The notes beneath the pieces were generated by a model that was given only the letters and a program-made list of their open reading frames with translations, did no database searches and was not told where the DNA came from. This document shows positions 1 through 25,225 of a DNA stretch of 37,137 nt, piece after piece (position 1 is the stretch's first letter; every line of letters begins with the position of its first letter). A program made the translations under genes and the position numbers. The DNA comes from a virus (taxonomy: Duplodnaviria; Heunggongvirae; Uroviricota; Caudoviricetes): the IMG/VR virus record IMGVR_UViG_2703718793_000014; one strand, given 5' to 3'.

Positions 1-1020
1 TTAATCCCCCGTGGACACTGCGTGGACACTTACGCCACCTTTCAGCGGATTAAGGGCCACCGCATCCTGCAGGTAATCCGGTGCAAAATGCGCATATGCC
101 ATTGTTTGCTGAATGGTTGCGTGACCAAGAATCTTCTGAAGCGCAATAATGTTTCCTCCGTTCATCACAAAATGGCTGGCGAACGTATGCCGCAGCACAT
201 GTGCAGCCTGGCCTTTTGGTAAATCGGGCTTAACTCTTTTCAGCGCCAGGCAGAATTCCCGGTACTTCACCTCAAACAAGCCGCCTGTTTCTCTGGTTTT
301 GATCGCCTCACAAACTGCCTGCGAAATTGGCACTGTTCTCTTCCGGCCATTTTTGGTTTCAAGAAACGTTACACGGTTATGAACTATCTGTTCACCACGA
401 AGCTTACAAGCTTCACTCCAGCGCGCCCCTGTGCTTAAACACAAAAGCGCAACACGCCAGTAGTCGCCCTCCAGTGTATCGAGCAATAGCGCCACTTCCT
501 TCTGTGACAGGAACGCCATTTCTCGTGGAGATACATAAAGAATAGAAATTCCCCTTACTGGATGTTCTGCATCCCAAAGACCTATTTTTTTCAGCACGGT
601 AAACATTCCGGATAACCGATTCATGTACCTGTTAGCAGATGACGGTTTCAATCCTTCAGCTATCTTTTGAGAACGCCACGCGATAATTTTCAGCTTATCA
701 AGATCCACAGCCTGCATATCAGCGCCAAGCTCATTGATTATGTTGCGCAGTTGTTTTCGGTCTTCTTCCGCCTTACGCCTGTGCTGGCCGTGATACATCC
801 ACCACAACTCAAGCAAATCATTTAGCGTTCGACGATCACGGTAGCCCTGTATATATTCCCGCTTTTCAGCGTTCGCCATGATGTAGCGTTCAGTGGCCAC
901 CGCTACCGATTTTTTGTCAAATACCTTACGCACGCGCTTTCCCTTGCGTCCGTTCGGCCTGATGTCCAGCAAATAACGACCATCTTCGAGCTTCTTAATC
1001 GACATTACGAAGCCCTCCAA
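1..1020 (-). CDS. int: Tyrosine recombinase / phage integrase (P2 Int family)
   Basis: 339-codon ORF; C-terminal catalytic region LRHTFASHFVMNGGNIIALQKILGHATIQQTMAYAHF is typical of tyrosine integrases; sits at the prophage end next to the att repeat and the repressor. Confidence 0.9.
   Translation of the reverse strand: MEGFVMSIKKLEDGRYLLDIRPNGRKGKRVRKVFDKKSVAVATERYIMANAEKREYIQGYRDRRTLNDLLELWWMYHGQHRRKAEEDRKQLRNIINELGADMQAVDLDKLKIIAWRSQKIAEGLKPSSANRYMNRLSGMFTVLKKIGLWDAEHPVRGISILYVSPREMAFLSQKEVALLLDTLEGDYWRVALLCLSTGARWSEACKLRGEQIVHNRVTFLETKNGRKRTVPISQAVCEAIKTRETGGLFEVKYREFCLALKRVKPDLPKGQAAHVLRHTFASHFVMNGGNIIALQKILGHATIQQTMAYAHFAPDYLQDAVALNPLKGGVSVHAVSTGD
11..35. repeat. Putative attL core: GTGGACACTGCGTGGACA(CT)TACGC, imperfect direct repeat of 35957-35979
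   Basis: Same 18-mer with one mismatch plus a 5-nt TACGC extension after a 2-nt indel recurs at 35957-35979; the two copies bracket all phage genes. The left copy overlaps the 3' end of int. Confidence 0.6.
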
Positions 1021-1101: not shown

Positions 1102-1422
1102 TCAGCGGGATAATTTTTGGATTGTTTCGGTTGAAACGCGATCTCCCTCCGAATTGCAGGAACCATCAAGAGAGAGAGCCGGAGAAATTTGCCCGACCTC
1201 CGGCATCGTTTCATCTGTTGATAACCAATAAGCATACTTCTTAAATTTAGGGTGTTTCGTAACCTTAAGTAAGGCACCCTCTGTTACTTGCTTCCCCCTC
1301 ACCTCATAGTTAGTTACCGTCCCATAAGGCAGCCCAACACAATCCGCAAACTCCTGGCGGGTCATACCTTCTGCTTCACGAATCAGGCGAAATTTTTCAC
1401 CCATGCTTGACAAAGATGCCAT
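1102..1422 (-). CDS. C: Immunity repressor, P2 C-like (short HTH repressor)
   Basis: Translation contains MTRQEFADCVGLPYGTVTNYEVRG (HTH) and KYAYWLSTDE...EVGQISPAL, resembling the P2 C repressor; divergent from cox. Start chosen at MASLSS (GGAGGA 10 nt upstream); in-frame ATGs further upstream (to 1476) are possible alternatives. Confidence 0.75.
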   Translation of the reverse strand: MASLSSMGEKFRLIREAEGMTRQEFADCVGLPYGTVTNYEVRGKQVTEGALLKVTKHPKFKKYAYWLSTDETMPEVGQISPALSLDGSCNSEGDRVSTETIQKLSR

Positions 1423-1535
1423 ATCGGGCATATCCTCCATCGAAACATGCCACATCGGGCACAAACATAAAAACACTCAAATAAGCCGATATAAGCCATT
1501 TTGAGCCATTCGAACGAATTAGGGAGATTACCACA
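1423..1535. promoter_or_regulatory. Divergent early promoter/operator region (Pe/Pc-like switch) between repressor and cox
   Basis: Intergenic region between divergent C and cox; contains direct repeats ATAAGCC(GAT)ATAAGCC and AGCCATT(TTG)AGCCATT around 1483-1515, resembling the direct-repeat operators of P2-type switches. Confidence 0.4.
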
Positions 1536-1823
1536 ATGAGCGAATCAGAGCTTGGGGGGTTCATTCAGGTAGCACCATATCCACTTGAAGCGGTGCCATA
1601 TCAACTATTCGCCAAGATGATCGGCCGCAAGGAATCCACAGTCAGAACCATGATTGACGCAGCAAAGCTACCGACAATTGACTTTGTGAAACCAGGTTCA
1701 GTAAAGACGCGTGCATCAGAAAACTGGGTATATCTGCCAGCATTTAACGAAGGCATGCGCAAAGCGTTTTTTGAGCAACCGAAAGAACGCCGCGACGCAT
1801 GGTTGTTGTGGCTGGGACTTTAG
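1536..1823 (+). CDS. cox: Cox-like excisionase / early transcriptional repressor
   Basis: 95 aa; motifs PYQLFAKMIG, NWVYLPAFNEG and C-terminal WLLWLGL closely resemble P2 Cox; GGGAG Shine-Dalgarno upstream; first gene of the rightward early operon. Confidence 0.85.
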   Translation: MSESELGGFIQVAPYPLEAVPYQLFAKMIGRKESTVRTMIDAAKLPTIDFVKPGSVKTRASENWVYLPAFNEGMRKAFFEQPKERRDAWLLWLGL

Positions 1824-3582: not shown

Positions 3583-3824
3583 CCATTCTGGACTATATCG
3601 CCGCCAATCCGGGGTGTAGCGGTGGAGAAATCGCCGCAGCACTGAATACCCCAACCACAGCCATTAATGCGGAGTTACGCCGACTCTGGCGCAGCGGTTC
3701 AGTCATAAGAAAAGAGCGCAAAACAGGCGGTCGCTTTTCTTACCAGATAAACCCGATGCCGTTCGGGTGCGGCAATCCACTTACCAACATGTTTAACCAG
3801 CTACTGAAGGAAGCCAGAGCATGA
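3579..3824 (+). CDS. Small putative winged-helix DNA-binding protein
   Basis: 81 aa; segment SGGEIAAALNTPTTAINAELRRLWRSGSVIRKERK looks like a helix-turn-helix plus wing; translationally coupled to both neighbours. Confidence 0.45.
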   Translation: MTILDYIAANPGCSGGEIAAALNTPTTAINAELRRLWRSGSVIRKERKTGGRFSYQINPMPFGCGNPLTNMFNQLLKEARA

Positions 3825-4120
3825 GCGCCATCAACCACCAGGAATTACGCGAACTGGCGACTGACCTGCAACGAATGGCAACGCCTCAAAAATTACTGGC
3901 GTTTCGCGCAATGCTCTCGCCGTCTGCTGTGCTGGCGCTGCTGGATGAGCTGGAGCACGCCAGAACCACACCTCTCGCCATTCGCCTGACGCTCCGTCAT
4001 GAAATCGAGGATTTCTGCGCGACGTTGGAGGCGCCAGGCGAACCGGAAACGCCGGAAGCAATACAGAAAGAGCTGCTGCAACGCATTGACAAGGTTTTTG
4101 ATTTTTTTCTGAACCACTAA
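3821..4120 (+). CDS. Hypothetical early protein (99 aa)
   Basis: Coupled ORF (ATGA overlap with the previous gene); helical, acidic C-terminus; no motif recognised. Confidence 0.5.
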   Translation: MSAINHQELRELATDLQRMATPQKLLAFRAMLSPSAVLALLDELEHARTTPLAIRLTLRHEIEDFCATLEAPGEPETPEAIQKELLQRIDKVFDFFLNH

Positions 4121-4242
4121 GAAACCAGAACATGCACACACAAAAAAACCGCTTGCCATGCCGCAATCAGTCAGGTTACATTTCCGCTGCACCTCACAAA
4201 ACGGGTGCCGGGTTTCGCAGCCTGCTGACTACACAAGCGCAC

Positions 4243-4263
4243 AACCGCGCCAGCGGTTTTTTT
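4243..4263 (+). terminator. Rho-independent terminator-like hairpin plus T-tract
   Basis: AACCGC-GCCA-GCGGTT stem-loop followed immediately by a run of Ts, within the non-coding island 4121-4442. Confidence 0.45.
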
Positions 4264-4442
4264 GTGCGTACTGTATTGCCACGTTTTTTTCGCGTCAGAA
4301 TTATGGCGGGGCGCACGGGGCCGACTTCGGTCGGGCCGGGTTCTTGTGTAGCCGGTACTGCGAACCTCGTACGTCTCGCCACCCACAGTTTCGCAGCTCT
4401 GGATGGTGAGTTTTCACAACTTACTACACAAGGGGCCACACC

Positions 4443-4673
4443 ATGGCAAACCGCAAACCACACCGCGCTATCGCGGAGCGTCGTCACATCCAGACTGAAA
4501 TCAACCGCAGACTTTCCCGCGCATCACGCGTCGCGCAAATCATGCACATCAATATGTTGCATGAGCGCAGCCACGCACTATCAAACATTTATTCCGCCTC
4601 TGTTTTCAGCTATCTGGCGGATGATCTGCACGAGCTTCAACAGCTCATCCAGCAGCAAAACAAACTCCATTAA
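4443..4673 (+). CDS. Hypothetical basic protein (76 aa)
   Basis: ORF following the non-coding island; arginine-rich N-terminus; no motif recognised. Confidence 0.45.
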   Translation: MANRKPHRAIAERRHIQTEINRRLSRASRVAQIMHINMLHERSHALSNIYSASVFSYLADDLHELQQLIQQQNKLH

Positions 4674-4745
4674 TTCCTGTTCCGGGCCTTTCCTGCACCT
4701 TGCGGCGGGAGGCCTTCGCACATCTGTAACAAGAGGATTGCCGCA

Positions 4746-5111
4746 ATGATTCTCGCCAACGACTTTCTTGAATACCTGCTCAACACAGAACGTGATCTTG
4801 CCGCTCGCGTGCGTGATCGTTATGACATGTACCTGAAATCCATGCCTGTACCGCAGCTCGCTGACGGAAAAATTGTTATTGATGGTCGCTACGTGATCGA
4901 CAGCCATGAGGGAAATTACAGGCTTTACCGCATTGAAGGTGGCACCCCGTCCGTTATTGGCATTTACCAGCGCCCATCCTCTGCAATCGTCGATGTGATT
5001 GCCGACAGCATCCGCATCACACATCGCCATGCCGACACAGAAGACACCGTGCTGGAAATTCAGCGGCTGGCTACAGTCTGCCGCGACACCCTGAATGGCA
5101 TGACGAAGTAA
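4746..5111 (+). CDS. Hypothetical early protein (121 aa)
   Basis: AAGAGG Shine-Dalgarno upstream; ends just before the start of gene A. Confidence 0.55.
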   Translation: MILANDFLEYLLNTERDLAARVRDRYDMYLKSMPVPQLADGKIVIDGRYVIDSHEGNYRLYRIEGGTPSVIGIYQRPSSAIVDVIADSIRITHRHADTEDTVLEIQRLATVCRDTLNGMTK

Positions 5112-5117
5112 ATCACT

Positions 5118-7940
5118 ATGACGGCAGAGTACATCAGGGACTGGCAACAACCGCGCCACGCAGTGGGGCGTGAAGGAACGGGGATCCCCGCTCCTGAATC
5201 CGCGCTTTCCTCCTGGCTGGATGCCTACCGGGCAGAGAACGAGCGCCGCCAGGAAATGGCTGATGCGGCGTTCTCCGCCACGCCGCTGGGCAACCTGATT
5301 AATAAAAGCCTGGACGCACAGGAAAAACAGGACAAAACCATCACACTGGCAGGAGACGCCAGAAAACAGGCACGCGGCGCGGTGGATGAAGCCATGGCCT
5401 CGCTGCGCCTGCTGCCGTCCTATCTGCGCGATCCGCTTATTCGCCACCTCTCCTTCCTGCGCAAAAAACAGGAAGCCGATCGCCGGAAAGGCAAAAAGAG
5501 CTGGCAGGCTGAACGCTACGCGCGCGGAACCCTGCGCAAAATATTCGAACGTCTGGGCCGCACCGACCACCGCTGGCTGACACCGGGTTATCGCTCCCTT
5601 GCCGGACGCGAACGCCTGGATGATTTGCTTTACCTGCCGCAGCTCAACAAACACCAGATACAGACGCTGGCCACCATGACGGCGGCGATGTTCAGCAGCA
5701 CTTTCGAAAAACTCTGCGATGGCTTTGGCGCGACCGATGGCGAGCTGACCATGGATGTAACGCTGAAGGCGTATCAGATGCTGGCCCGCATGGCGTTACA
5801 CCTGCACGCCATGCCTCCACATTATGACGCACTGACAACAGACAAAGACCGGAGGAACGAACCGGACACGGAGCTGCTGCCGGGTGCAATCCTTCGCCTG
5901 ACCTGTGCGGAATGGTGGAAACGCAAACTGTGGCTGTTACGTTGCGAGTGGCGGGAAGAACAACTCCGCGCCGCCTGTCTGGTTTCCAGAAAAACATCAC
6001 CCTATCTGAGCCAGGACGCGTTAAGCGAGTTTCGCGCACAGCGCGAGAAAACACGCGATTTCCTGAAAAGTTTCATGCTGGAAAATGAAGACGGATTCAC
6101 GATTGATCTCGAGACAGTGTATTACGCGGGAGTAAGTAACCCGGTTCACCGTAAGGCAGAAATGATGGCCACCATGAAGGGGCTGGAACTTCTGGCCGAA
6201 GCCCGTGGCGACAAAGCGGTGTTTCTGACTGTCACCTGCCCGTCAAAATACCACGCCACAACAGAGAACGGTCATCCGAATCCCAAATGGAACGGGGCCA
6301 CCATGCGCGACTCCAGCGATTACCTGGTTAACAAGTTTTTTGCGGCGGTCCGCAAGAAACTGAACCGCGACGGCCTGCGCTGGTATGGCATCCGCACGGT
6401 GGAGCCTCACCATGACGGCACCGTGCACTGGCATATGATGGTCTTTGCTCATCCGGAAGAAATCGACAGCATCGTGGCCATCACCCGCGATATTGCCATT
6501 CAGGAAGACCGCCACGAGCTGGGCAATGACATAACTCCGCGCTTTAAGGCAGAGTACGTCGACGGTTCGAAAGGTACGCCGACCAGCTACATCGCCACCT
6601 ACATCGGAAAGAACCTGGACAGCCGCGCCGTGGATGGCATTGACCCGAAAACAGGCAAGCCACGCGTTGATCACGAAACCGGAAAATCAATGGCCGAGAG
6701 CGTGGAACGCGCCATCGGCTGGGCGCGCCTTCACCGCGTCCGCCAGTTCCAGTTCTTTGGTATCCCCTCCCGTCAGGTATGGCGTGAACTCCGCCGCCTT
6801 GCCAGTCAGATGGCCCGCAACCCGGAAGGTCCACAACGTCTGGAAAATGACGCAATGGATGCGGTACTCGCTGCCGCTGATGCCGGGTGTTTTGCCACCT
6901 ACATTGAGAAACAGGGGGGCGTACTTGTTCCACGCAAGGATTACCTGATTCGCACCGCCTACGACCTCGCAGAAGAGCTGAACGATTACGGCGAGCAAAG
7001 CGTACAGATTTACGGGATCTGGTCGCCACAAATCGGGGAATCTTCCCGCGTGTGCACGCACCCGGATAACTGGAAGCTGGTAAGACGTAAACCGGAAGCG
7101 GAAGACAGCGCCCGCGAAAATGGTTTTGACCTTCAGGGCGGCCCTGCCGCCCCTTGGACTCGTGGCAATAACTGTCCCCGTGTACAGGAAACGGACAACA
7201 ACGGGACAGAACAGCCGGAAGAACGGCCAGCACCGTGGCCGCAGCTCCCTGACGGCGTTGAAGTGAACGAATGGATGCGCTCACTGAAACGGCACGAACG
7301 CCGGGCGCTGATGCGTTCGCTTCGTGACAAACAGGCAAAAAACAGCAGTGATGAAATGCAGAGCTGGACACAGAGCCGCAAACAGCAGCGGCCTTTGCCT
7401 GATAACCACGAATTACTCGCTAAAGAATGGCGGGAGTCTGCTGAATCTCTCGGCCTGCATATCGGTGAACAACAGATGCAGCACCTGTTACGGGGCGGCA
7501 GTCTGTACGTTGACGGCAGCATCATTGCACCGCAGGGATTTGAAATTGTACGCAAACCGGATACCCGCCCGGACAGCCGAATCACGCAGCTCTGGCAGCG
7601 CCTGAGCCGTAATCATGGCGTAAGCAGCACGGAGATCCGCCATAACCCGGTCGCCAGCTATCTGGCACAGCTGGGGGCATCAGACCCTAAAGCCGCCGCA
7701 CGCCTGGCATCCACACTTCAGCAGGACCAGAACACCATGAAAACACCCGTTACCGTGCTTTCTGACATGCTGCGCGCCATCCGCGACGCAGAGCACGCAC
7801 AGAGAATCAGTGAAACCACTGAACGCGCCAGCCGCAAAGCAGACCTGCTGCGGGGTGGCCTGACCAGCGGAAACAAAAAACAGACAGAAACGGGACTCAC
7901 GAATCCCGTAAATGAGCAAAAAACGCGCAGCGATATATGA
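5118..7940 (+). CDS. A: Replication initiation endonuclease (P2 gpA family rolling-circle initiator)
   Basis: 940 aa; conserved block FLTVTCPSKYHATTENGHPNPKWNG...RWYGIRTVEPHHDGTVHWHMMVFAH (metal-binding His motif) and paired catalytic tyrosines in TSYIATYIGKN. My impression is that it carries a long C-terminal extension relative to P2 A. Confidence 0.9.
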   Translation: MTAEYIRDWQQPRHAVGREGTGIPAPESALSSWLDAYRAENERRQEMADAAFSATPLGNLINKSLDAQEKQDKTITLAGDARKQARGAVDEAMASLRLLPSYLRDPLIRHLSFLRKKQEADRRKGKKSWQAERYARGTLRKIFERLGRTDHRWLTPGYRSLAGRERLDDLLYLPQLNKHQIQTLATMTAAMFSSTFEKLCDGFGATDGELTMDVTLKAYQMLARMALHLHAMPPHYDALTTDKDRRNEPDTELLPGAILRLTCAEWWKRKLWLLRCEWREEQLRAACLVSRKTSPYLSQDALSEFRAQREKTRDFLKSFMLENEDGFTIDLETVYYAGVSNPVHRKAEMMATMKGLELLAEARGDKAVFLTVTCPSKYHATTENGHPNPKWNGATMRDSSDYLVNKFFAAVRKKLNRDGLRWYGIRTVEPHHDGTVHWHMMVFAHPEEIDSIVAITRDIAIQEDRHELGNDITPRFKAEYVDGSKGTPTSYIATYIGKNLDSRAVDGIDPKTGKPRVDHETGKSMAESVERAIGWARLHRVRQFQFFGIPSRQVWRELRRLASQMARNPEGPQRLENDAMDAVLAAADAGCFATYIEKQGGVLVPRKDYLIRTAYDLAEELNDYGEQSVQIYGIWSPQIGESSRVCTHPDNWKLVRRKPEAEDSARENGFDLQGGPAAPWTRGNNCPRVQETDNNGTEQPEERPAPWPQLPDGVEVNEWMRSLKRHERRALMRSLRDKQAKNSSDEMQSWTQSRKQQRPLPDNHELLAKEWRESAESLGLHIGEQQMQHLLRGGSLYVDGSIIAPQGFEIVRKPDTRPDSRITQLWQRLSRNHGVSSTEIRHNPVASYLAQLGASDPKAAARLASTLQQDQNTMKTPVTVLSDMLRAIRDAEHAQRISETTERASRKADLLRGGLTSGNKKQTETGLTNPVNEQKTRSDI

Positions 7941-8016: not shown

Positions 8017-8976
8017 ATGAAAATTTGTATCGATGACGGCTCCACCAACATCAAGCTGGCATGGACTGAGAACGGCGAACGCCGCAACGCCATCAGCCCG
8101 AACAGCTTCAAGTCGGAATGGTCTGCGCCGTTCGGTGGCACGCAGCCCGCGAACTACATGCTTGATGGCGTGCGCTATGGTTTTGATCCGGTCAGCGATC
8201 GCTTTGTCCAGACGACCGACACGCAATACCAGTACAGCGATGTGAATGTCATTGCCATTCATCACGCGCTGGTCAAATCAGGCATCACACCACAGGAAGT
8301 GGATGTGGTTGTCACCCTGCCACTGAGCGAGTATTTCGACACAAACGCACAGCCGGACATGGCCAACATCAACCGCAAAAAAGCAAACGTCATGCGCCCG
8401 GTGGCGTACCAGAACGGAAAAGCATTCACTATCCGTAACGTACGGGTTATGCCTGAATCCATTCCGGCTGGTTTTAAAGCACTGGCTGACATGAGTCCGT
8501 TTGAATCCCTGCTTATTGTGGATTTAGGCGGAACCACGCTGGATGTGGCAAAGGTTCAGGGGCAACTGGCAGGTATCAGCCAGGTGTTTTGCGATCCACA
8601 CGTAGGCGTTTCTCTGATGGCCAATGCCGTACTGTCGGTGATGGCCACTAACGGTATGCGCACCAGTCACCACATCGCCAATACCATTATCGAACATCGC
8701 CATGATGAAGCCTGGCTGCGCCAGCACATCCACAATGACGCGCATTACGCCAGCCTGATGGCGGTTATTCGTGAAAAGGAAGAAACACTGAAACAACGCG
8801 TGATCCGCGCGCTGGCGGTTTTTTCGGGTTACGGGCGGGTGATGGTTGTCGGTGGCGGGGCGGAGATTGTGGCACCCGCTATCCGCGAAGCCTGCGGAGT
8901 TAATGCGACTTTCATCGCGGACGGGGTGCCACAGTTTGCTCTGGTTAATGGGCTGTACGCAATGGACAAGGAGTAA
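8017..8976 (+). CDS. ParM/StbA-like actin-type segregation ATPase
   Basis: 319 aa; N-terminus MKICIDDGSTNIKLAW, then YSDVNVIAIHHAL, VMPESIPAGF, LLIVDLGGTTLDVA and VMVVGGGAEIV match, block for block, the ParM of plasmid R1 as I recall it (actin-fold phosphate and adenosine motifs). Confidence 0.8.
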   Translation: MKICIDDGSTNIKLAWTENGERRNAISPNSFKSEWSAPFGGTQPANYMLDGVRYGFDPVSDRFVQTTDTQYQYSDVNVIAIHHALVKSGITPQEVDVVVTLPLSEYFDTNAQPDMANINRKKANVMRPVAYQNGKAFTIRNVRVMPESIPAGFKALADMSPFESLLIVDLGGTTLDVAKVQGQLAGISQVFCDPHVGVSLMANAVLSVMATNGMRTSHHIANTIIEHRHDEAWLRQHIHNDAHYASLMAVIREKEETLKQRVIRALAVFSGYGRVMVVGGGAEIVAPAIREACGVNATFIADGVPQFALVNGLYAMDKE

Positions 8977-24638: not shown

Positions 24639-24646
24639 AGGTGAAC

Positions 24647-25225
24647 ATGGATTTCAGAATGAGTGAACAACCACGGACCATAAAAATTTATAATCTGCTG
24701 GCCGGAACTAATGAATTTATTGGTGAAGGTGACGCATACATTCCGCCTCATACAGGTCTGCCAGCAAACAGTACCGATATTGCACCGCCAGATATTCCGG
24801 CTGGCTTCGTGGCTGTTTTCAACAGTAATGAGGCATCGTGGCATCTCGTTGAAGATCATCGGGGTAAAACGGTTTATGACGTGGCTTCCGGCGACGCGTT
24901 ATTTATTTCTGAACTCGGTCCGTTACCGGAAAATGTTACCTGGTTGTCGCCGGATGGAGAGTGTCAGAAGTGGAACGGCACATCCTGGGCGAAAGATGCA
25001 GAAGCAGAAAAACTGTTTCGGGTACGGGAGGCAGAAGAAACAAAAAACAGCCTGATGCAGGTAGCCAGTGAGCATATTGCGCCACTTCAGGATGCCGTAG
25101 ATTTGGATATTGCGACGGAGGAAGAGGCATCGTTACTGGCTGCATGGAAGACATATCGGGTATTGTTGAATCGTGTTGATACAACAGTAGCAGCGGATGT
25201 TGAGTGGCCAGTCGCCCCACAATAA
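24647..25225 (+). CDS. G: Tail fibre assembly chaperone (P2 gpG / Tfa family)
   Basis: 192 aa from ATG 24647 (GAGGT upstream); position after the fibre genes; translation typical of Tfa proteins. Confidence 0.8.

Follow-up and report, generated by a model that had tools for sequence, protein, structure and literature searches.

The island between positions 4121 and 4442 of this P88-type, P2-like temperate phage is a known IsrK-C4 RNA immunity module, a structured RNA but not a new one. We put at roughly 80% the probability that it serves as an IsrK-C4 antisense-RNA immunity cassette in the early operon, a device identical in kind to the immI region of P1 and P7 and to the seqA-CI-seqC arrangement of satellite phage P4. 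By analogy with P1 and P4, the module most likely shuts off the putative anti-repressor gene that lies just downstream. In P1 and P7, the immI region is said to comprise the c4 antisense RNA, its sites a1/b1 and a2/b2, and the icd-ant operon. The kind has long been known (it is a textbook antisense system since 1990), and standard Rfam models recognise the present copy. The c4 and c4-a1b1 motifs were described by Weinberg et al. 2010 (PMC2864571), and the P1, P4 and IsrK/C4 RNAs have already been equated in the literature (Barquist et al.). An original prediction, made from the letters of the DNA, had proposed a structured RNA or regulatory element at this place. It was right in outline and the finding is real, but ordinary; the prediction had overlooked the known C4/IsrK identity, the set of a sites and a promoter-like site at 4153-4182.

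The window, that is the whole stretch of DNA that was analysed, is 37,137 nt long and holds a nearly complete genome of a P88-type, P2-like temperate phage. Over positions 3800-5200 it is 99.3% identical to Xuanwuvirus P884B11. The integrase, the C repressor and cox open a rightward early operon, in which the island follows the last of the small early genes and precedes, in this order, a 76-aa ORF, orf121 and the replication gene A. The protein repressor (C-type HTH) and cox at 1102-1823 imply that an RNA is not the sole immunity factor of this phage. The genes and frames around the island are:

1-1020, minus strand: integrase
1102-1476, minus strand: C-type HTH repressor
1536-1823, plus strand: cox
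3821-4120: Ead/Ea22-like ORF, directly before the island
4132-4749, plus strand: open frame that spans the whole island
4443-4673, plus strand: 76-aa epsilon-like ORF (Pfam PF25738), the first gene under presumed C4 control
4746-5111, plus strand: orf121
5118-7940, plus strand: P2-type replication gene A (PHROG 91, nicking at origin of replication)

Two Rfam families were matched over their full length in a scan of the whole window. The leader RNA scored 64.1 bits with RF01394 (cut-off 50; model positions 1-77 of 77), and the C4 antisense RNA scored 78.9 bits with RF01695 (cut-off 45; model positions 1-87 of 87). These two families above their gathering scores, covariation within the RNA, and an antisense loop that covaries with its targets together uphold the view that the region is a structured RNA or regulatory element and neither a spacer nor a gene. 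The description of the region as a GC-rich island holds in part: 4200-4400 has 60% GC, but the flanking genes reach 58-62% and the GC content of 4100-4300 is merely 49.5%. The elements of the module, from 5' to 3', are:

4153-4182, plus strand: sigma-70-like predicted promoter (promoter scan; TTGCCA, 18-nt spacer, TACATT)
4189-4263, plus strand: IsrK-type leader RNA (Rfam RF01394), equivalent to the P4 seqA leader
4214-4220, plus strand: a1 (TTCGCAG), upstream target of a'; leader hairpin 2 contains it in its loop and 3' arm
4229-4237, plus strand: b1, upstream target of b', CTACACAAG
4243-4263, plus strand: leader intrinsic terminator with a 6-bp stem, GCCA loop and U7 (terminator scan and fold)
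4299-4386, plus strand: C4 antisense RNA, Rfam span (RF01695)
4321-4334, plus strand: C4 hairpin 1, CCGAC-UUCG-GUCGG
4335-4356, plus strand: C4 hairpin 2, stem GCCGG/CCGGU with a 12-nt loop bearing b' (Rfam model and fold)
4343-4351, plus strand: b', recognition loop CUUGUGUAG, complementary to b1 and b2
4358-4364, plus strand: a' (CUGCGAA), unpaired recognition segment with complementarity to a1 and a2
4390-4396, plus strand: a2, target of a' on the downstream side, shortly past the predicted 3' end of C4
4424-4432, plus strand: b2, downstream target of b', overlapping the Shine-Dalgarno AAGGGG at 4430-4435

The leader consists of two 5' hairpins, a single-stranded b1 segment and, at its 3' end, an intrinsic terminator. 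Its family, RF01394, is named for binding to Hfq. The terminator had been predicted at 4243-4263, and its stem-loop (AACCGCGCCAGCGGTT) and T-run are in place there, found independently by a terminator scan. Among the 43 related loci in which a1 and b1 are clearly ordered, 30 carry a terminator-like hairpin 3' of b1. Gene A is essential and lies beyond this terminator, which transcripts of the lytic phase would have to pass, a point that speaks against the cassette reading. The c4-a1b1 model (RF03163), which describes the P1-type leader, reached 20.9 bits at 4176-4228, below its cut-off of 46.7; the leader is not filed under that family because it is of the IsrK/P4 type. Taken as a single sequence, the leader has a modest folding z-score of -1.2.

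The promoter scan places the transcription start of the leader at about 4189. The -10 element of the predicted promoter aligns with the annotated -10 of the P1 promoter P51b, and each lies 31 nt from its a1. The site is conserved in P88-type relatives, and a second subgroup has TTGATT, a 17-nt spacer and TACACT at the same position. The scan also returned a second promoter-like site at 4276-4304, which we rejected: its -35 is not conserved across relatives, its spacing is lost by an 11-nt deletion in the second subgroup, and its start would fall within the closing stem of C4. Inspection by eye near the module promoter found no LexA box (CTGT-N8-ACAG), and no operator for the main repressor was seen at that promoter.

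The C4 RNA has a long closing stem around two hairpins, with b' in a loop and a' single-stranded. From its register with the annotated 77-nt P1 c4, the mature RNA is predicted to run from 4305 to 4383 (79 nt), with its 5' G following an AU at 4305 and its 3' end, ...GCCACC, at 4383. The original prediction had named RNA folding and covariance analysis as its check, and both now speak for a conserved structure. The minimum-free-energy fold of 4299-4386 coincides with the Rfam consensus structure. In an alignment of 56 C4 sequences, compensatory double changes occur in 12 of the 21 pairs, hairpin 2 and the UUCG loop being uninformative for covariation since the pattern used to find loci had fixed this loop and the hairpin 2 stem. 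The CCGAC-TTCG-GTCGG hairpin had been noticed near 4320-4335 and lies exactly at 4321-4334; four of its five pairs show 19-28 double changes each, and none is broken in the same alignment. The single-sequence folding z-score of C4 is a modest -2.6, and thermodynamics alone would not convince.

The recognition segments explain the repeats in the island. Three 9-mers in alternating orientation had been pointed out, and they lie at 4229-4237 (plus), 4343-4351 (minus) and 4424-4432 (plus). The plus-strand copies at 4229-4237 and 4424-4432 read CTACACAAG, and their complement, CTTGTGTAG, is found at 4343-4351. The 9-mer has just these three copies in the 37-kb window, against a chance expectation of 0.16, and at least three copies were seen in 0 of 100 shuffles. 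A second set of 7 nt accompanies it, with TTCGCAG at 4214-4220 and 4390-4396 and the complement CTGCGAA at 4358-4364. The composite TTCGCAG-N(5-30)-CTACACAAG was observed three times, compared with an expectation of 0.00. By their complementarity, these repeats correspond to a recognition loop of the antisense RNA and the two targets predicted for it, and loop and targets covary across relatives. The predicted duplex of C4 with the a2/b2 region has an energy of -34.3 kcal/mol (shuffled mean -21), and that of C4 with the leader -35.8 kcal/mol (shuffled mean -24). In the MFE fold of the full 4189-4470 transcript, a1/b1 are paired in cis with a'/b'. The a1 position is the same as that of the annotated P1 a1 site, and 10 nt separate b2 from the ATG at 4443.

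Comparison of related loci indicates that these complementarities are maintained while the sequences themselves change. A search of genome contigs with the 76-aa protein gave merely three loci, and a DNA pattern scan of viral contigs was used instead. It returned 126 matches, about 22 of which were chance hits in GC-rich DNA and were removed by a closing-stem filter; filtering left 57 specificity types, a sample that is skewed by the pattern to close C4 types. Matching was scored as an exact complement of at least 7 nt, with non-self values obtained from loops set against the flanks of other loci. By this test, a' matches the upstream a1 of its own locus in 54 of 57 types (6.3% in other loci) and the downstream a2 in 50 of 57 (4.2%). 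For b', the upstream b1 and the downstream b2 are each matched in 40 of 57 types, compared with 8.7% and 5.6%, respectively, in other loci. The order a1, b1, terminator, C4, a2, b2 and start codon recurs across loci, and b2 most commonly ends 9-10 nt short of the start codon. In Rfam, C4 was matched in 12 of 12 sampled loci, eight of which have a tandem isrK or c4-a1b1 match. Beyond the recognition segments, GGATGGTGAG at 4402-4411 can pair over at least 7 bp with the 3' strand of the C4 stem in 76% of self comparisons versus 47% of non-self comparisons, a weak enrichment.

Close relatives show the same relation at finer resolution. In an alignment of 30 of them, the six blocks a1, b1, b', a', a2 and b2 hold most of the variation and change in concert. 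Among 17 near-identical P88-type islands, 66% of the columns within the six blocks are variable, compared with 28% elsewhere (p = 8e-8), and five a' alleles and ten b' alleles occur in 12 combinations. Some relatives have imperfect sites, namely b2 in loci L053 and L099 and a1 in L034. An ordinary intergenic spacer that happens to contain a terminator, with repeats that arose by chance, has next to no probability in the face of these results. The modest single-sequence folding z-scores are all that speaks for it; it is refuted by the shuffles and the covariation, and the Rfam matches and the pattern of variable blocks are likewise contrary to it.

A protein-coding role for the island needs closer consideration. 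The original prediction had seen no credible ORF here. One plus-strand frame (4132-4749) is in fact open throughout, so that the statement fails in its letter, but the frame lacks a coding signature and the statement stands in its substance. The frame starts 11 nt past the stop codon of the upstream early gene, and its end overlaps the orf121 start codon in an ATGA, shortly before gene A. It could be argued that it encodes a Pfam 'Ash' protein and that the RNA-like features are incidental: the frame is stop-free across the island in 30 of 30 relatives, its residues 16-109 match PF10554 (Phage_ASH) at 26.5 bits with a cut-off of 26, which is borderline, it has the ATGA junction with orf121, and it is sometimes labelled 'ash family protein' in RefSeq. 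The pattern of change between relatives makes this very improbable. Variable sites in 4303-4442 fall 18/19/18 on the three codon positions, without periodicity. In the overlap with the 76-aa gene they fall 24/49/23, and the peak at position 2 corresponds to position 3 in the 76-aa frame. The 76-aa frame is the coding one because the variable sites there are distributed 23/24/49. Indels between relatives are not multiples of three and the aligned frame is not conserved; in locus L004 the frame from the C4 AUG meets a stop at codon 65. The compensatory changes of hairpin 1 would replace an amino acid in each arm of the stem, and the variable blocks track RNA complementarity. A conserved coding frame had been named as what would overturn the RNA reading, and the comparison shows no codon periodicity and a variation that follows RNA pairing.

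P4 has an Ash match too, at 59.7 bits, and there it coincides with the old 'cI ORF' that spans the CI RNA; P4 epsilon itself matches PF25738 alone. The P4 immunity factor at the old 'cI ORF' is an RNA. We conclude that the island has no protein-coding function, and the Pfam 'Ash' family appears to be largely the translation of a conserved RNA locus. This bears on studies that take Ash for a protein marker.

The first gene after b2 is the 76-aa ORF. Its product matches PF25738, the 'Derepression' family, at 32.5 bits (cut-off 27) and P4 epsilon with 29% identity (BLASTP, E = 4e-9), and its orthologue in P88 is named 'derepression protein' in RefSeq. It has no similarity to P1 Icd, and no Icd homologue was found. 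Epsilon is reportedly an anti-repressor that inactivates the C repressor of P2. The 76-aa protein is a homologue of P4 epsilon and, by this relationship, a putative anti-repressor of P2-type C repressors. No ORF of the size of kil lies between b2 and the epsilon-like gene, and orf121 has no significant similarity to P4 orf151 (E = 0.16). Further downstream, orf121 and gene A (4746-7940) would be exposed to polarity, and we infer that they too come under C4 control.

By analogy with P1, P4 and Gifsy-1, the module may work as follows. Most transcripts would go no further than the leader terminator, leaving a short RNA of the IsrK kind. RNase P would cleave the read-through transcripts, and trimming of their 3' end would give a mature C4 of about 79 nt. 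This RNA would pair with a2 and b2 and block translation of the epsilon-like gene, whereupon Rho would terminate the untranslated RNA. In this way the anti-repressor would stay silent in the lysogen as well as in superinfecting phages that share its a/b type, and orf121 and gene A would possibly be silenced too through Rho-dependent polarity. The leader sites a1 and b1 may act as decoys that pair with the C4 segments, either in cis or as the free short RNA, and would thereby tune the amount of free C4. The variable but matched a/b sequences would constitute a specificity code and lead to heteroimmunity.

Within this family of devices, control can be exerted at different steps. By analogy, we rank a P1-type translational block first, ahead of leader termination as in P4 and activation as in Gifsy-1, because the register of b2 and the Shine-Dalgarno is identical to that in P1. 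In P4, seqA and seqC are both said to be required for immunity-specific termination. Under a corresponding P4-type control, C4 on nascent a1/b1 would raise termination at 4243-4263 or at a downstream Rho site, and C4 would act mainly by stopping transcription into the epsilon-like gene, orf121 and gene A rather than by masking a ribosome-binding site. The two RNA families are the same in P4, as is the order of epsilon and then a replication gene, and a terminator lies directly 3' of b1 in 30 of 43 loci; such a possibility has also been raised for STnc1160 (PMC4825925). The placement of b2 over the Shine-Dalgarno with the 10-nt spacing of P1 points instead to translational control as the first step, and the sequence contains no anti-terminator alternative to the leader hairpin, so that we regard this type of control as doubtful.

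The same RNAs might also act mainly as an activator of the IsrK type. In Gifsy-1, read-through of IsrK, a processed RNA (STnc1160) and control of an anti-repressor have been described (Hershko-Shalev et al. 2016, PMC4825925), and the short IsrK trans-activates anrP (PMC4825925). Here, the short leader would open in trans a read-through RNA that cis pairing of a1/b1 with a'/b' holds in an inactive fold, and would thereby turn on translation of the anti-repressor; the module would be an induction trigger and not an immunity device. The leader fits the isrK model and not the P1 c4-a1b1 model, and the cis pairing of a1/b1 with a'/b' in the MFE fold of the whole transcript resembles 'structure A' of Gifsy-1 (PMC4825925), both in keeping with activation. 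Against it, b2 overlaps a Shine-Dalgarno that belongs to the epsilon-like gene itself, an arrangement shared with P1 and P4, and the gene needs no translational coupling to a short ORF before it; a2/b2 moreover covary with C4 as strongly as a1/b1 do, which the Gifsy-1 model does not require. We consider activation unlikely to be the main role, and note that the immunity and activator models are not mutually exclusive.

The stop-free state of frame 4132-4749 could have yet another cause, namely that the frame is kept open for the passage of ribosomes through the module and not for a protein, an idea to which we give little credence. If it were true, ribosomes on early transcripts that start at the cox-side promoter would unfold the leader terminator and C4 and break up the a2/b2 duplex. 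RNA immunity would then have no hold on lytic transcripts, and orf121 and gene A would be translated by coupling. Transcripts that begin at the internal promoter, inside the frame, would stay repressible. Such a translation-dependent bypass would be analogous to the immunity-insensitive PLL transcripts of P4.

The island is widespread, being carried by 720 of 5,426 complete E. coli genomes (13%). It is mostly unannotated, with occasional labels such as 'ash family protein', 'hypothetical protein' or 'transcriptional regulator', and genome records that contain it could now be annotated correctly. In the searchable literature, we found no description of the module in P2-like or P88-type phages. 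With the IsrK-C4 immunity cassette as the preferred reading, P88-type P2-like phages probably have a two-layer immunity like that of P1, composed of a protein repressor and an anti-repressor gated by RNA. Immunity groups could be defined by the combinations of a/b alleles, which could also influence the interplay with P4-like satellites.

Of the closest known systems, P1 immI has the same layout to the nucleotide. The annotated P1 record has the order promoter P51b, a1, b1, the 77-nt c4 RNA, a2, b2 and icd, and the present locus likewise runs from promoter through a1, b1, C4, a2 and b2 to a first gene. RF01695 recognises both C4 RNAs (P1 c4 at 68.8 bits), and the spacings are identical at 31 nt (-10 to a1), 66 nt (b1 to C4) and 10 nt (b2 to ATG). 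In both, b2 lies over the ribosome-binding site, an anti-repressor would be the regulated product, and the a/b sequences would set the specificity. The leaders differ, that of P1 matching c4-a1b1 at 51.0 bits (cut-off 46.7) and isrK weakly at 35 bits, whereas the leader here is of the IsrK type with a strong intrinsic terminator. The first gene here is epsilon-like, compared with icd in P1, and no Ant homologue was found here. The phage here is P2-like and integrates; P1 is a plasmid prophage.

The immunity region of P4, for which the mechanistic background was drawn partly from PMC4825925 and PMC3632133, has the order promoter PLE, seqA leader, CI RNA, seqC, kil/eta, epsilon, orf151, cnr and alpha. 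Both Rfam models match it, with the CI RNA scoring as C4 at 74.9 bits and the seqA leader as isrK at 60.8 bits. Features in common with the present locus are a terminator at the end of the leader, the succession of an epsilon-family gene and a replication gene after the module, and -10 regions that align between the two promoters. About 90 extra bases lie between leader and CI in P4. There, the CI RNA is the only immunity factor, whereas the present phage also has a C-type repressor and cox. The first translated gene in P4 is kil, which contains the Rho-dependent termination site timm, while here the epsilon-like gene comes directly after b2, and orf121 is unrelated to P4 orf151. The replication gene also differs, being P2 gene A (nickase) here and the alpha primase in P4.

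The IsrK/STnc1160/orf45-anrP locus of Gifsy-1 from Salmonella shares with the present locus an IsrK-family leader, whose terminator is partly read through in Gifsy-1, and a processed stable RNA downstream (PMC4825925), which here would be C4. An anti-repressor gene is under control there, as is proposed here, and cis pairing between the leader and the C4 region ('structure A', PMC4825925) is predicted here too. In Gifsy-1, a 45-codon ORF that overlaps the C4-like RNA is translated and coupled to anrP (PMC4825925); here, by contrast, the ribosome-binding site under b2 belongs to the regulated gene itself. The published model for Gifsy-1 is one of activation by the short RNA, and a repressing role of the C4-like RNA is not established there (PMC4825925). 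In the present locus, C4 precedes a putative anti-repressor gene, as it does ant in P1 and anrP in Gifsy-1, and a replication gene comes next, as in P4.

The 322-bp island is widespread in Escherichia coli, being present in 720 of 5,426 complete genomes, with 398 of these carrying it at 99% identity or higher. Its genomic copies are mostly unannotated, and no RNA gene was annotated for it in any row sampled. Some phage and genome records instead overlay the island with a 'hypothetical protein', a 'transcriptional regulator' or an 'ash family protein', and the homologous region of lambdoid and Stx phages is covered by the 5' end of genes annotated as 'antirepressor' or 'Rha'.

The left limit of the IsrK-C4 RNA module was indicated by comparison with phage P88. 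Relative to position ~4120 of the window, P88 has extra annotated genes (P88 3833-5170) between its Ead/Ea22-like gene and the RNA module:

P88 3833-5170, plus strand: annotated membrane protein and lipoprotein/serine protease
P88 3833-5170, minus strand: annotated small hypothetical protein

Similarity between P88 and the window picks up again just upstream of the module promoter, so the module acts as a single unit whose left boundary is fixed.

Within this unit, recognition alleles of the a type reassort independently of those of the b type. Alleles were compared over window positions 4213-4434 with a set of related loci (L001-L005, L027, L034, L042, L053, L056, L063, L066, L091, L099, L107 and L122), and 12 combinations of five a' alleles and 10 b' alleles were found among 17 otherwise near-identical islands. 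At locus L034, the upstream target copy a1 (ATTCTCACC) fits neither the a' (TGTGGAAA) nor the a2 (TTTTCCAC) of that locus, which gives it the look of a recombinant. Some a' alleles are also common to P4-type elements, such as UUCUCAC, which occurs in both locus L069 and P4. One member of the set, L005 (NZ_JBQPOM010000071.1), is a contig with a Firmicute label (Vagococcus sp. WN89Y) that has an enterobacterial P88-type early region, in which the 76-aa protein is 88% identical; this probably reflects assembly contamination or mislabelling.

All 30 relatives retain the element GGATGGTGAG (window 4402-4411) between the downstream target copies a2 and b2. This element is able to base-pair with the closing stem of C4 on its 3' strand (4375-4383), which in the precursor before processing would create an alternative hairpin with a2 inside. 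The covariation signal for the pairing was weak (76% in self versus 47% in non-self combinations).

A reading frame (4132-4749) also runs through the island. It begins 11 nt past its upstream neighbour's stop codon, and its terminal ATGA lies on the orf121 start codon. No stop codon interrupts the frame within the island in any of 30 relatives, even though these relatives are separated by indels whose lengths are not divisible by three and codon periodicity is lacking. Its openness could be a matter of chance in a GC-rich structured sequence, or alternatively could result from selection for ribosome passage.

Two further Rfam matches were encountered. IS009 (RF02111) matches the window at full length (24990-25188, 191 bits), and because the match sits within a tail-fibre assembly gene (24641-25225, Pfam Caudo_TAP), this 'sRNA' family probably represents a conserved stretch of coding sequence in P2-like prophages. 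A TwoAYGGAY RNA (RF01731, 58.9 bits) was found in one viral contig, L061 (2832-2951, minus strand), about 0.8 kb from a C4 RNA and on the same strand.

What Pfam lists as PF10554 ('Phage_ASH') appears to be the IsrK-C4 RNA locus in translation. In the window, the leader, C4 and a2/b2 (4177-4458, in the frame of ORF 4132-4749) correspond to positions 1-100 of the profile. In P4, profile positions 44-107 match 8330-8521 on the minus strand, which falls on the old 'cI ORF' covering the CI RNA, and the only match of the epsilon protein itself is PF25738. PF10554 serves as an epsilon marker in P4-like satellites (PMC8628076), and an unexplained 'Ash domain' has been reported in Rha proteins of Stx phages (PMC8951638); the RNA module may be what both of these detect.
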